From positions 1-46,265 of the IMG/VR virus record IMGVR_UViG_3300047561_000454: a DNA stretch of 46,265 nucleotides. One strand, given 5' to 3'. Shown one piece after another: positions 1 through 4,217 of this stretch. Origin of the DNA: a virus. Taxonomy: Duplodnaviria; Caudoviricetes. The position numbers and the translations under genes were made by a program. Positions within the stretch are counted from its first letter, which is position 1. The number at the start of each line of letters is the position of its first letter. A model generated the notes under the pieces. The model was not told the DNA's origin. It searched no databases and worked only from the letters and a program-made list of their open reading frames with translations.

Positions 1-41
1 CCACTCTGTTACTTGTTGCCCTGTCGAAACTAGTCTCCCCC
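1..41 (-). ncRNA. ssrA: tmRNA coding piece, 5' part (permuted two-piece tmRNA; continues beyond the left window edge)
   Basis: Minus strand from 41 reads GGGGGAG-ACTAGTTTCGAC-AGGGCAACAAG, the typical tmRNA 5' end (acceptor strand, D-loop ending UCGAC, P2). GGGGGAG pairs with CTCCTCC-ACCA at 217-207 and includes the Ala identity pair G3.U70. The tag frame lies outside the window. Confidence 0.9.
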
Positions 42-44
42 ATC

Positions 45-208
45 ATAAGAAAACTTAATATACTGTCAATGTTAACGCACTCCACCACAAGCGTAAACCA
101 TATACAGTTCCTGCTTTTCCATATTTTTCACGGAATGGATACAAGCCTGGAGTTAGTCCTGTTTTCTTGTGGAAATTGATTTGCATTTTCATTTCAAACT
201 TTCTTATG
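45..208 (-). repeat. Inverted repeat closing the tmRNA intervening segment
   Basis: CAUAAGAAAGUUUGA (208-194) pairs with UUAAGUUUUCUUAUG (58-44), 15 bp including G.U pairs. Confidence 0.8.
55..192 (-). CDS. 45-aa hypothetical protein inside the tmRNA intervening segment (MKMQINFHKKTGLTPGLYPFREKYGKAGTVYGLRLWWSALTLTVY)
   Basis: Hand-translated, ATG at 192 to TAA at 57-55. Fills 138 of the 165 nt between the CCA end and G1. No clear Shine-Dalgarno sequence. Confidence 0.55.
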   Translation of the reverse strand: MKMQINFHKKTGLTPGLYPFREKYGKAGTVYGLRLWWSALTLTVY

Positions 209-369
209 GTGGAGGAGGGGGAATTCGCATCCCCGTCCAGAACACTTTTCTCTTTGCTTCATACAGCAATAAAAAACACTATACGGTCTATCTGCACTTT
301 TAGGTTTCCCTAGAGTAATCTGGTGTACCAGCCCTGAGATTTGATATTATCTAATCTTCTATAGTGCTA
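207..369 (-). ncRNA. ssrA: tmRNA acceptor piece (3' tRNA-like half with encoded CCA), located upstream of the 5' half (circular permutation)
   Basis: Minus strand reads GTGTTCTG-GAC-GGGGA-TGCGAAT-TCCCC-CTCCTCC-A-CCA (ends at 207): P2 strand, GAC linker, T arm, acceptor strand. UGUUCUG pairs with CAGGGCA of the coding piece. The 5' boundary is inferred from the ATAAATA motif at 381-375 and is uncertain. Confidence 0.88.
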
Positions 370-374
370 ACTAC

Positions 375-381
375 TATTTAT
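375..381 (-). promoter_or_regulatory. T4-type late promoter-like motif (ATAAATA) upstream of the tmRNA
   Basis: TGATAAATAG overlaps the stop codon of the 47-aa ORF, a few nt before the structured RNA begins. Confidence 0.55.
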
Positions 382-524
382 CACCAAGTTTTCTTAGCGA
401 TCCAATGTTGTATCTCTTGTATTTTCCACGCTAGTCCCCATGGCAGTGTGAACCATATCTTGTTACCACTCGGAGTATACATGGTCTTACCATCATTGTC
501 AACACCCATCAATCCTATAAACAT
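381..524 (-). CDS. 47-aa Trp-rich hypothetical protein (MFIGLMGVDNDGKTMYTPSGNKIWFTLPWGLAWKIQEIQHWIAKKTW)
   Basis: Hand-translated. Strong RBS (TAAGGAG-aagat-ATG) and an upstream ATAAATA at 550-544. It fills the gap between the 1227-aa gene and the tmRNA. Confidence 0.75.
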   Translation of the reverse strand: MFIGLMGVDNDGKTMYTPSGNKIWFTLPWGLAWKIQEIQHWIAKKTW

Positions 525-533
525 ATCTTCTCC

Positions 534-3500
534 TTAAGATTTATATTTATTCTGGTAGTAAGTTCTTAACCAACCCCAATCATAACTCAATCGTAATTTA
601 TCAAAATCACCATTGACTTCTTCATAGTATTCTATAGCATGTCGAGCACCTTGTAAACTGTATTGGAAAAACTCACCTAACCCAACATTTAACCAAGCAT
701 CCAATCTCTTGTCATTTTCTGTTGTACTAGATGCTTTAAGTTTAATGCATTCACGGAACGCAGTACGCCAAGTATCCCATTCACTACTGTTATACATACC
801 TATACCACTATTAGCCGAAACAACTTCATGTTCGCTGTCCATAGTAAAGTCTAGTCCATTGCCAAAGTTAGCTAATGTCAACTTCTTGTTATTAGCAACG
901 ATGGCTTGGTGACCATACACTAGTCCATTCACTGGGTTGGTAGCATGAAAGATATAGTGTTTTGGTATTTGTAATCTATCTGGTTGCCAATTGAAATCAA
1001 ACTTAGATGCTACTTTTAATTTAGCATTAACTAAAAAATACCATGATGTATTACTACTATTTGCAGCAGCATGTTGACTTTTCACACGACCATCTACGCC
1101 GTCTATTCTAGTTACTTTGTTAGGCAATACTTGTGTTATCTTTAATAAATGTTCGTAGTTTTTGTCTGCACCAGCTTCACCGTTGCTGAAAAATATAATG
1201 TCTAGTGGATTAGATTCTATGAGTTTATTACTTGAAATGATGTATGGATAATCATATAATTCTTTCTTTACATAGTGTTTAGCTTCTTTTGGAACAATGA
1301 TTTGCGTTCCACCTTTGCTAGCAATAGTAATGTTTTTAGTCTTATTGCTCCATATATTCATTGGTTCGGCATCAATTGTATTGAGATTCTTATTATCTTC
1401 AGTTACAAATACAGCATATGGGAAATTAAACTCAGTATTAATACTAGTTACATGGCTATCACTTTCTGTAACAATTACTGGAGCAGGCAATCGTTTGACT
1501 CTCTGATTTTGATTGAAGTTAATTTTATTGTAATCTTCTAAAGTTTTCATATCAGTTATCAATGTCCGAAGTTTGTTAACGTCAATAAAAAACGTATCTC
1601 CAAACTTTTGCTTATCGCTGGGAAACACATGTAATTGTTCTTTAGCAAACGGGTCACAGATATAAGTAAAATCAAAATCACTATAATCACAAATAGTACT
1701 AACTACCCAGATATGATGTTCTTTTTTAGTAGGTAGAATCTCAACTATCTTTTTGAACGTTTTAAAATAATCTTGTTCATACTTAATAACTACTTTACCT
1801 TCAGTATCAGATAAGTTACCGTGGTCAATGTAAATGATATCATATAAAATATTAGTTGCTTTAGCCCGTCGTTGTTTAACAAAATTTAAATTAGAAAGAT
1901 GTTCAATAATCTTAATATATTTTGTATCTTCTGAAAATGTTTCTTTGTTAATCATGTACGTGTTTCCCCAATGGCTCCATTGAGTTCCAAAAACATGTAC
2001 CATTTTAGTTTGCCATGGGCTAGGATAAAAATCAAATAGAAAATCACTATAGTCTAACTCGCTGTTTAATACCCAAAATAACTTAGTTTCTGACTTGATG
2101 ATGCAGCGGTTGATGGTTTCTACCCAACTATTTAAATAACGTGTTTTTTGTAATTGGGGATAACGTTTTTTTAGTATACTAAATCTAAGCATACTTTCAT
2201 CATTACCTTTATCAATGAAAAACATACTTAGGTTACTATCAACTTCTATTAATTTTTCTTCAATATAATTAAATTCACGATGACCTAAATTATACATTGG
2301 TCCATTGATATAATAAGTTTGCGTATTTTTACTATATTCATTACCAAATATATTTACATGCCTGAAGTTTTCTTCATTTGGTCTCCAATTAAAATCAAAC
2401 TTATCATAATTTAAATCAGGATTGATAGCCCAAAATACTTCACTCGGGTGTTCGTTAATTAAATCTTCAATCGTTGTTTTGATTTTATAACGATTTACTA
2501 TGATATTTTTAGCATCTTCAGTTCTTTCCATATAGACTACATCTACTGCATCGGGTACAGTATATCTAGGACCATTGTCGGCCCATTGGTATATTTGAGG
2601 TGAACTATGTGGGTTGGGTCTCCAACTAAAATCAAATGTTTTGTAATCTTCTTTATTAAAAACTGTCCAACGTGTCATATCTGATTTAGGGATAGCAACA
2701 GGATAATCTAAATATTTTCTAACTTCTGCCCCCGGTACATGATATTCAATAGTTGGTTCAGTTTTACTGTCATTCCATTTATTACCAAATACATAAATCA
2801 TAGGTGGCTCATGTAAATTAGGGTCAGGTCTCCATCTATAATCAAAACTATTTCTTTCTACTGGAATTAATTGTTTCCATCTGTCCCATTCAGGTTCTAA
2901 CTCAACAATATCCATGTATTTGTATTCAGTTGCCCCTGGCACACAATACTCTATTGTAGGTTTTTCTTCTGATGAATGAAATTTGTTACCCCATACATAA
3001 ATGTAAGGAGGTTCATGTAGATTAGGATCAGGTCTCCAACTGAAATCAAATATGGTTCTATCTACTAAAATATATTCTTTCCACCTATCCCATTCAGGTT
3101 CTAACTCAACAATATCCATATATTTGTATTCAGTTGCTCCTGGTACAATATATTCTAGTGTAGGTTTTACTTCAGCAGGATCATACTTATTACCCCATAC
3201 ATAGATATACGGCGGTTCATTTAAGTTAGGATCAGGTCTCCAACTGAAATCAAATGTGGTTCTATCTACTAAAATATATTCTTTCCACCTATCCCATTCA
3301 GGTTCTAAATCAACAACTCCCATATATTTGTATTCAGTTGCACCAGTTGCAACGTATTCTATCGTAGGTTTTACTTCAGCAGGATCATACTTATTACCCC
3401 ATACATAGATATATGCAGGTTCACGTGGGTCAGGTCTCCATGCTAAATCAAATTTAGTTTTATCTACTTTTATAGTTTCTTTCCATTTGTTTAGTTCCGG

Positions 3501-4217
3501 TAACACTGGCAGCAAATCAGTCATGTATTTTGTATCCGTTGCCCCTGGCATATGATACTCTAACGTAGATTTTAATTTAGCATCAATATATTTGTTTCCC
3601 CAAATATAATTCATAGGAGGTTCTAATGGGTCAGGTCTCCAAGACATATCAAATTTATTTTTGTCTACTTCTTGTACTTCTACCCATCGTTCCGTATATG
3701 GTATTAATTCAACAATAATATCCATATACTTTATTGTTGTTGCCCCATGCACATGATATTCTAAACATGACTGTAGTTCTACGGGAAAGAATTTACAACC
3801 CCATGCATATACAAAAGGAGGATCCGATGGATCTGGATGCCAACTGAAATCAAATTTAGTTTCGTCAACTAAATCTAATAGTACCCAATTTTCATTTTTT
3901 AAGTTTTTGCGTTTAACTGTATCAACATCAGCACGATAGATTATTATTTCGCTATACTGTTTAGGGCATAACCAGGTTCCGCTATCTTTTTGATGTTGAC
4001 TAGGCCATACATTGTTATGTTCTTCTGCCCATACATCTTCGTCAGGTAAAAATTCAAAATCAAAGTCCCAATCAAAACCACGATAATCACAGTATTCGTT
4101 AATTATCCAAAAATTATCAGTGGTACATTGGTTTCTAGCATCTTCTATTGAAGTTGCGAATCTTTCTCTTGGGTGAACATTGGGTTTTTTACCGTAATAA
4201 AATACATCTCTTAGCAT
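534..4217 (-). CDS. Large repeat protein with a C-terminal glycosyltransferase-like (GT-A-type) domain
   Basis: The C-terminus (DIIFFSNGE..RIDGVDGRVKSQHAAA..WYFLVNAK..TWRTAFRECIKL) aligns by eye with the 14784-15737 protein. It is preceded by about 11 copies of an FDFxWxP..[HY]V[WF] module. Confidence 0.75.
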   Translation of the reverse strand: MLRDVFYYGKKPNVHPRERFATSIEDARNQCTTDNFWIINEYCDYRGFDWDFDFEFLPDEDVWAEEHNNVWPSQHQKDSGTWLCPKQYSEIIIYRADVDTVKRKNLKNENWVLLDLVDETKFDFSWHPDPSDPPFVYAWGCKFFPVELQSCLEYHVHGATTIKYMDIIVELIPYTERWVEVQEVDKNKFDMSWRPDPLEPPMNYIWGNKYIDAKLKSTLEYHMPGATDTKYMTDLLPVLPELNKWKETIKVDKTKFDLAWRPDPREPAYIYVWGNKYDPAEVKPTIEYVATGATEYKYMGVVDLEPEWDRWKEYILVDRTTFDFSWRPDPNLNEPPYIYVWGNKYDPAEVKPTLEYIVPGATEYKYMDIVELEPEWDRWKEYILVDRTIFDFSWRPDPNLHEPPYIYVWGNKFHSSEEKPTIEYCVPGATEYKYMDIVELEPEWDRWKQLIPVERNSFDYRWRPDPNLHEPPMIYVFGNKWNDSKTEPTIEYHVPGAEVRKYLDYPVAIPKSDMTRWTVFNKEDYKTFDFSWRPNPHSSPQIYQWADNGPRYTVPDAVDVVYMERTEDAKNIIVNRYKIKTTIEDLINEHPSEVFWAINPDLNYDKFDFNWRPNEENFRHVNIFGNEYSKNTQTYYINGPMYNLGHREFNYIEEKLIEVDSNLSMFFIDKGNDESMLRFSILKKRYPQLQKTRYLNSWVETINRCIIKSETKLFWVLNSELDYSDFLFDFYPSPWQTKMVHVFGTQWSHWGNTYMINKETFSEDTKYIKIIEHLSNLNFVKQRRAKATNILYDIIYIDHGNLSDTEGKVVIKYEQDYFKTFKKIVEILPTKKEHHIWVVSTICDYSDFDFTYICDPFAKEQLHVFPSDKQKFGDTFFIDVNKLRTLITDMKTLEDYNKINFNQNQRVKRLPAPVIVTESDSHVTSINTEFNFPYAVFVTEDNKNLNTIDAEPMNIWSNKTKNITIASKGGTQIIVPKEAKHYVKKELYDYPYIISSNKLIESNPLDIIFFSNGEAGADKNYEHLLKITQVLPNKVTRIDGVDGRVKSQHAAANSSNTSWYFLVNAKLKVASKFDFNWQPDRLQIPKHYIFHATNPVNGLVYGHQAIVANNKKLTLANFGNGLDFTMDSEHEVVSANSGIGMYNSSEWDTWRTAFRECIKLKASSTTENDKRLDAWLNVGLGEFFQYSLQGARHAIEYYEEVNGDFDKLRLSYDWGWLRTYYQNKYKS
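2520..3890 (-). repeat. Seven tandem ~66-70-aa repeats (FDFSWRPDP..PPYIYVWGNK..PTIEY.VPGATEYKYM)
   Basis: Repeats are visible in the protein. At DNA level, near-identical copies have a 204-nt period (ggatcaggtctccaactgaaatcaaat at 3025 and 3229). Confidence 0.92.

Follow-up and report, generated by a model that had tools for sequence, protein, structure and literature searches.

Evidence that the spacer of a permuted tmRNA in an uncultured jumbo phage is an exchangeable slot for small protein genes

In two-piece tmRNAs, processing is carried out by RNase P together with 3' trimming. Phage tmRNAs of this kind are already known and account for 53 of the 133 phage tmRNA structures of Buchholz et al. 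(PMC9004378), and the tmRNA pieces are cut by tRNA-processing enzymes (PMC11915505). Nawrocki et al. described a tRNA-Ala gene in one tmRNA spacer and a repetitive element in another, and homing endonuclease genes occur in group I introns of tmRNA (PMC11915505). In a different stable RNA, the 23S rRNA spacer of Coxiella encodes the protein S23p, which is apparently not made in vivo (PMC4990558); general background to the subject is given in PMC3978253. Spacer open reading frames (ORFs) are unmentioned in the accessible portions of PMC11915505 and PMC9004378, the word "intervening" is absent from those of PMC9004378, and the available part of the PMC11915505 supplement has no entry on IVS, intervening, or phage. 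No description of protein genes in tmRNA spacers was found in the literature searched, with subscription journals and bioRxiv supplements lying outside its coverage.

The window, which is the whole 46,265-nt virus contig that was analyzed, encodes a baseplate wedge and virion genes. Its neighboring regions match IMG/VR contigs of up to 361 kb, and it is therefore taken to be a fragment of an uncultured jumbo phage. At the end of the contig, on the minus strand, the Rfam family tmRNA_permuted (RF04321) covers positions 268..1 (-) with 63.8 bits against a cutoff of 47, its 3' side being clipped by the contig end, while the beta_tmRNA match was weaker (37.9 bits) and fell under its own cutoff of 84. 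ARAGORN called zero tmRNA genes on the window, probably because the tag-coding part is absent from it; only 41 nt remain from G1, and the tag frame is lost past the contig end. The closest relatives among the matches listed carry the tags ANDEQFALAA (L029) and ANDSQFALAA (L004), and the tmRNA flanks of L029 are 98% identical to those of the window. The acceptor (3') piece was placed at 207..268 (-) from the RF04321 match, the sequence, and the flank identity with L029, and it includes the T arm (234-218, -) and the acceptor 3' strand (217-211, -). The coding (5') piece begins at G1 (position 41) and occupies 1..41 (-), as judged from the sequence and Rfam; its acceptor 5' strand (41-35) pairs with 217-211 at seven of seven positions, with a G3.U70 pair, and is matched at the other end by discriminator A210 and an encoded CCA at 209-207. 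The T loop is uninterrupted, and no intron family was matched in the Rfam search. The order of acceptor piece, spacer, and coding piece, the G3.U70 pair, the encoded CCA, and a spacer that is presumably not part of the mature RNA are all shared with permuted tmRNAs (RF04321, RF01850). On these sequence grounds, the window tmRNA is a genuine permuted (two-piece) tmRNA gene, and it carries a new kind of spacer content.

The spacer occupies positions 206-42 (-) and is 165 nt long. Its first 13 nt (206-194) pair with 58-46 at all 13 positions, including three G.U pairs; two more pairs, between the CA of CCA and 45-44, bring the stem to ~15 bp in total (13 + 2). The helix is extended by pairing of ACCA with the final four spacer bases, UGAU, with one mismatch. 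The 5' arm (194..206, -) was assigned from this pairing and from a 20-nt identity with another phage spacer, L148, and overlaps the ribosome-binding region of the ORF; the 3' arm (58-46) together with the ACCA-pairing UGAU (45-42) forms the leader before G1 (42..58, -), all 17 nt of which are identical in L148. The energy of the arm duplex is -7.9 kcal/mol, and the fold of the entire spacer is only modestly better than that of shuffled sequences (z, -1.88). Across 218 spacer clusters among the matches listed, stem positions 2-10 were paired in 91-100%, compared with 42-86% when partners were swapped, several pair types were seen at each of these positions, and TGAT formed the terminal spacer bases in 196 of the 218. 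This alignment evidence showed that the spacer stem extends the acceptor helix and is kept by covariation. The generality of the stem makes it a feature of the tmRNA locus; because TGAT pairs with the CCA region, a TGA stop comes free of charge.

Cellular permuted tmRNAs have short non-coding spacers, whereas those of the phages are closed by a stem in fixed register and in many cases encode a protein under selection. In the cellular baseline, the median spacer length was 30 nt and an ORF of at least 20 codons was present in 0 of 33 loci (33 of 34 loci parsed, mostly Alphaproteobacteria, the best 30 of 40 minus one, plus a few others). The longest cellular match outside this 34-locus set has a spacer of ~83 nt with no ATG-led frame. 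A betaproteobacterial baseline was set aside, since its two strong permuted tmRNAs in 121 genomes were too few, as was a pattern scan of a genome collection, in which nearly all of 120 loci were chance matches and two passed a loose T-arm filter. The single real permuted tmRNA from that scan has a 166-nt spacer lacking an ORF.

The window spacer contains a 45-aa cargo gene at 55..192 (-), running from ATG 192 to TAA 57-55 with its stop inside the 3' arm, as supported by the ORF itself, its homologs, and a structural model. The spacer length, the ~15-bp stem, and the start and stop positions given in an earlier sequence-only reading of this DNA are thus all present, and the 45-aa peptide is encoded as quoted there. 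In 20,000 shuffles of the window spacer alone, the chance of an ATG in the first 25 nt opening a frame to the 3' arm was 0.022, and that of a complete ORF of at least 45 codons was 0.007. Six close homologs of the peptide were found, and among representatives of 50% clusters there were 33 matches, three of which were discounted as long repetitive proteins that look spurious, leaving ~30 credible homolog clusters. A codon model on 12 sequences gave an omega of 0.133. Between the window and free-standing copies, dN/dS was 0.12-0.25 in 10 of 11 pairs, the eleventh being saturated, and the free-standing homologs are 72-76% identical to the window at the nucleotide level, with differences mostly at third codon positions. 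AlphaFold on 32 sequences predicted a four-strand antiparallel beta meander (pLDDT, 95.9), superseding a helical first model from seven sequences (pLDDT, 65). Collectively, homology, codon-level selection, and predicted fold indicate that the window ORF is a genuine protein-coding gene of a conserved, unnamed phage family, as the earlier reading had proposed.

The gene was free-standing in all 17 homolog loci with DNA, with tmRNA absent around it (the 17 include one contig twice, and Rfam was run on 16, leaving out the duplicate). These copies either have other small genes as neighbors or precede what is probably the gene for a terminase small subunit; they have at least seven distinct upstream junctions and are without the spacer arms. 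Sequence searches of Pfam, PHROG, and PDB gave no match for the window peptide, and the Atlas returned solely unnamed clusters, at 0.89. Fold searches with the peptide model found nothing at an E value of 0.001 or better (best Z, 4.8), and these matches are uninformative because the four-strand meander is a generic fold. The annotated phage collection held no meaningful DNA match to the locus and no protein match to the peptide, and the family was absent from eight further related records, most of them incomplete. Most likely the small product is dispensable and has an accessory or host-interaction role, like those encoded in phage small-gene arrays. Two proteins, P0001 and P0002, are nearly identical to the window peptide, and their frames stay open. 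P0002 is 93% identical to it, and its C-terminal residues match an L148-type tmRNA read in frame, which, at the protein level, implies a second in-slot copy of the window's gene; no in-slot DNA homolog of the window ORF was present among the spacer loci examined. The window branch is short, and its two private changes are both non-synonymous, though conservative.

In related loci, near-identical arms were shown to enclose many unrelated predicted genes. The first 20 and last 17 spacer bases of L148 are the same as those of the window and enclose an unrelated 38-aa ORF, and in L029 a different 60-aa ORF lies between the flanks that are 98% identical to the window tmRNA. An arm scan, together with the window and L148, yielded 104 matches, 97 of which follow a T arm; 17 of these 97 were without the second half, and the rest represent 60 distinct spacers with the window-type 5' arm. 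An arm-to-arm ORF was found in 56 of the 60, in 29 protein families, and the remaining four contain two ORFs each. Of the 56, 38 have their stop at the TGA of TGAT and 10 at the window's position. More broadly, viral permuted-tmRNA scans, relatives' loci, and the window together yielded at least 476 parsed loci, at least 298 distinct spacers, and at least 154 clusters, which are kin, so that counts overstate independence. Among the matches listed, 54 of 123 clusters with 100- to 200-nt spacers have an arm-to-arm ATG frame, compared with 5.5 expected from shuffles and six in the antisense control on the same clusters. The cargo is sense-oriented, starts 9-17 nt past the CCA, and mostly stops in the 3' arm; it ranges from ~30 to 134 aa (first parse, among the matches listed), and thioredoxin is one of its families.

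Cargo was also found in more than one setting. In G012 the window's gene is free-standing and the genome's own permuted tmRNA, with other cargo, lies 3.1 kb away, and the same cargo was seen in different tmRNA types. The 376-nt spacer of L613 is a tandem of two complete arm-to-arm cassettes, both with arms of their own and both matching spacers found singly elsewhere (L550 and L640 types); in the first, the ORF no longer has its own stop and continues into the second arm. Taken together, these comparisons give good support to the view that the window spacer is an exchangeable slot for cargo genes. The earlier suggestion that the spacer serves as a landing site for such genes is thereby borne out by L148, L029, and the 29 families in the same arms. 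The sequence-based checks proposed in that reading also came out favorably: related permuted tmRNA spacers contain ORFs well beyond the shuffled expectation (54 of 123 long clusters), unrelated ORFs are swapped between identical arms, codon-level conservation is seen both in the family (omega, 0.133) and in other cargo in the slot (pN/pS, 0.20), and the peptide has homologs.

Several further spacers are recorded here in their own right. The L148-type tmRNA is an abundant phage tmRNA (~660 stretches) with acceptor strands GGGCCUG / CAGGUCC, and it fell outside the patterns of the first scan. The permuted tmRNA of L083 combines acceptor strands from different types, so that full pairing is impossible, and its cargo matches that of G012; it is likely a recombinant or a chimeric assembly. 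The spacers of L196, L218, and L228 contain non-coding cargo with tRNA-like T arms, and L196 also has a D-arm-like stretch; Rfam and ARAGORN call no tRNA in these three. A cultured phage also has such a spacer: in the Methylophilales phage Melnitz (MZ577097.1; L891, 581-722), a 142-nt spacer contains a Shine-Dalgarno-led 54-aa ORF that resembles the L354 family, lies inside the annotated tmRNA without a CDS annotation, and has a frame that reads into the coding piece.

The slot resembles the intervening sequences of 23S rRNA that encode S23p in that an ORF lies in a stem-closed segment excised from a stable-RNA precursor. In those sequences, the host RNA is 23S rRNA, excision is by RNase III within the helix, and a single family is present, which is decaying in Coxiella (PMC4990558). 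Unlike them, the phage slot holds at least 29 unrelated families under purifying selection, and its stem arms give the start and stop signals; the host RNA is tmRNA, and the window peptide has no Pfam match. Endonuclease genes in tmRNA group I introns are likewise nested in a tmRNA gene and removed on maturation, within a self-splicing ribozyme that sits in the T loop, and there the gene serves intron mobility (PMC11915505). In contrast, the window has an intact T loop and no intron match, its pieces are not expected to be ligated, slot cargo such as thioredoxin is unrelated to mobility, and the 45-aa ORF has neither a Pfam nor a PHROG match. Integrons combine a fixed expression platform with exchangeable single-gene cassettes. 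The phage slot is similar in having a fixed platform and swappable single genes, sometimes in tandem (L613); unlike integrons, it has a single-copy arm motif and carries its translation signals within an RNA-processing stem. Five genomes of 300-364 kb each have a single arm-plus-start motif, with no dispersed repeat, and two arm pairs in tandem are found only in L613. We know of no integrase or attC-type repeat for the phage tmRNA slot. The window feature thus belongs to none of the S23p, intron, or integron families.

Substitution patterns showed that cargo genes are, overall, under purifying selection while in the slot. In 16 disjoint pairs from the arm-selected set, pN/pS was 0.203 in frame, compared with 1.27 and 1.59 out of frame, and a second in-slot set, drawn from the matches listed and without an off-frame control, gave 0.198. 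The exceptions are two families with pN/pS above 1, on 6-7 differences, and the L148 family, which shares the weak arm of the window and has one synonymous and three non-synonymous differences. Of the translation signals, the ribosome-binding site usually comes from the 5' arm and the stop codon from the 3' arm. Among clusters of at least 80 nt, chosen on the acceptor stem only from 120 of the ~660 stretches, an ORF was present in 24 of 25 whose first 16 nt include a Shine-Dalgarno core and in 3 of 17 that lack one. The Shine-Dalgarno sequence is strong in 57 of the 60 window-arm relatives and weak in the window, with a pairing energy of -1.2 kcal/mol compared with -6.0 kcal/mol for the common arm; a core Shine-Dalgarno is found in only 7 of 24 other window genes, so that weak sites are usual for this phage. 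In 35 of 79 ORF-bearing long spacers among the matches listed, the stop lies inside the tmRNA 5' strand, past the expected RNase P cut. Eight RNA runs (assembled contigs, small word shares) covered relatives' flanks only and left the ORF interior (57-196) uncovered, which is neutral either way.

Two arrangements of spacer ORFs were observed in addition. L294, L331, L424, L441, and their relatives form a spacer family of at least 71 distinct sequences, in which a membrane-peptide ORF is conserved, and in L294-type spacers a short overlapping upstream ORF, placed before the membrane-peptide ORF, uses the Shine-Dalgarno sequence of the arm; the overlap suggests translational coupling. In L259, the frame of the spacer ORF continues across the tmRNA 5' part and into the tag ANDESYALAA; an unprocessed transcript would therefore yield a self-tagged protein.

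We consider it reasonably probable that the slot holds a conserved 45-residue gene whose unprocessed transcript is translated briefly, before the stem closes and the spacer is excised. One transcript would then likely serve as both tmRNA precursor and short-lived messenger. It would be made from an upstream promoter, either a sigma70-like match at 502-474 or a TAAATA motif at 380. The 5' arm and start codon would emerge first and unpaired, so that ribosomes could load co-transcriptionally; as soon as the 3' arm has been transcribed, the stem would hide the ribosome-binding site and complete the tRNA-like substrate, and translation and maturation would compete. Host RNase P would cleave at G1 and 3' trimming would free the CCA, leaving a freed hairpin that would be poorly translatable and degraded. 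In folding predictions, which describe equilibrium and not kinetics, the mean unpaired probability of the Shine-Dalgarno positions in 47 spacers was 0.60 in the nascent RNA, 0.07 in the full precursor, and 0.21 in the released spacer; the corresponding values for the window were 0.52, 0.02, and 0.04. Ribosomes would mask the CCA when at the start codon and unwind the stem when at the stop; from this, together with these models, we infer translation of the cargo and its competition with maturation. The cargo would cost the tmRNA nothing because the spacer is discarded. New cargo may enter by rare recombination at short common words, ATGAAA at the start and TAAG at the stop, and captured cargo would persist when the arms express it. 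Capture at shared words is the weakest step of this scheme; the microhomologies are short and could be coincidence. A bolder version is possible, if on the doubtful side: aquatic jumbo phages may use the discarded spacer as a gene-trial cassette, in which the stem supplies ribosome-binding site and stop, the expression pulse is set by ribosome loading versus RNase P, cargo translation throttles tmRNA maturation, non-stop products are tagged by the released tmRNA, and arm-to-arm units move as modules, as the tandem cassettes suggest.

The sequence-only reading had instead taken the translated form to be a stable, hairpin-bounded mini-mRNA freed by processing, with protein output tracking tmRNA maturation. 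The window start and stop both lie within the excised piece, a terminal stem could protect it, and an arm duplex of only -7.9 kcal/mol would fit such a form. However, the ribosome-binding region is predicted to stay paired once released (0.04 in the window, compared with 0.52 in the nascent RNA; mean released value, 0.21), the 35 of 79 ORFs (among the matches listed) that stop past the RNase P site would become non-stop messages, and the Coxiella 23S spacer is rapidly degraded after excision (PMC4990558). With the ribosome-binding site buried and stops past the RNase P cut, translation of the nascent or unprocessed transcript is likelier than that of a released mini-mRNA, which we regard as quite unlikely. 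A greater though still low probability attaches to a real slot in which the window copy is a silent recent passenger, conserved while free-standing and now barely translated. The weak Shine-Dalgarno sequence, the short window branch, the lack of an in-slot DNA homolog of this ORF among the spacer loci examined, the one synonymous to three non-synonymous changes of the L148 family with the same arm, and the S23p precedent in Coxiella (PMC4990558) would all fit such a copy. Against this, the window ORF is intact and keeps the frame set by the start and stop of the arm, weak sites are usual in this phage, slot cargo is selected overall, and the near-identical P0001 and P0002 stay open, the latter, as inferred from its protein, in a different tmRNA type.

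Movement of the cassettes might also be ascribed to a dedicated, integron-like capture system, based on a recombinase or on reverse-transcribed excised spacers, that transfers them from arm to arm. Exact arm-to-arm boundaries in 29 families, the two complete cassettes of L613, the recurrence of AAGTTT at both ends, and the presence of the same cargo in different tmRNA types point this way, but all five large genomes compared have a single copy of the arm motif, free-standing copies lack arms, and ordinary phage recombination with selection accounts for the pattern; such a system is improbable in our judgment. That the window ORF arose by chance, as an open frame in an AT-rich spacer, has a negligible probability. 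The single-locus probability of 0.007-0.022 and the lack of a Pfam, PHROG, or PDB match leave some room for it when the window is taken alone, whereas free-standing homologous genes with an omega of 0.13 and a confident predicted fold refute it, and with these comparative data the chance reading is removed.

Under the preferred reading, in which a brief translation of the unprocessed transcript precedes excision, a segment treated as non-coding becomes a common and overlooked source of phage genes. This suggests a simple route by which large phages could gain and express small genes at no cost to the retained RNA, and a mode of control in which one transcript chooses between message and maturation. 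It also bears on why phages carry tmRNA, part of whose usefulness may come from the expression slot.

Just upstream of the tmRNA, comparison with relatives identified an optional stem-closed element of ~99 nt at 270..368 (-) (joint at 269-368 in relatives). The element is common to L063, L003, and L120 and is missing in L029 and in the contigs of the RNA runs; two two-sided changes were found in its closing stem, Rfam gave no match for it, and it is probably on the same transcript as the tmRNA. Beyond it, at 381..524 (-), relatives' loci delimit a 47-aa ORF, the 3' end of which is found ahead of the tmRNA in several of them; the ORF had no match in a PHROG search, contains the sigma70-like promoter match at 502-474 (11/12), and ends at the TAAATA motif (380). 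Another sigma70-like match (11/12) at 69-42 (-) overlaps the ORF end and the 3' arm of the spacer. It was rejected as a promoter dedicated to the coding piece, because transcripts from it would begin within the acceptor strand. Apart from the spacer finding, the window also encodes a 1227-aa protein with Trp/Tyr/Pro-rich repeats at 534-4217 (-) and a 6794-aa protein at 20994-41378 (-).
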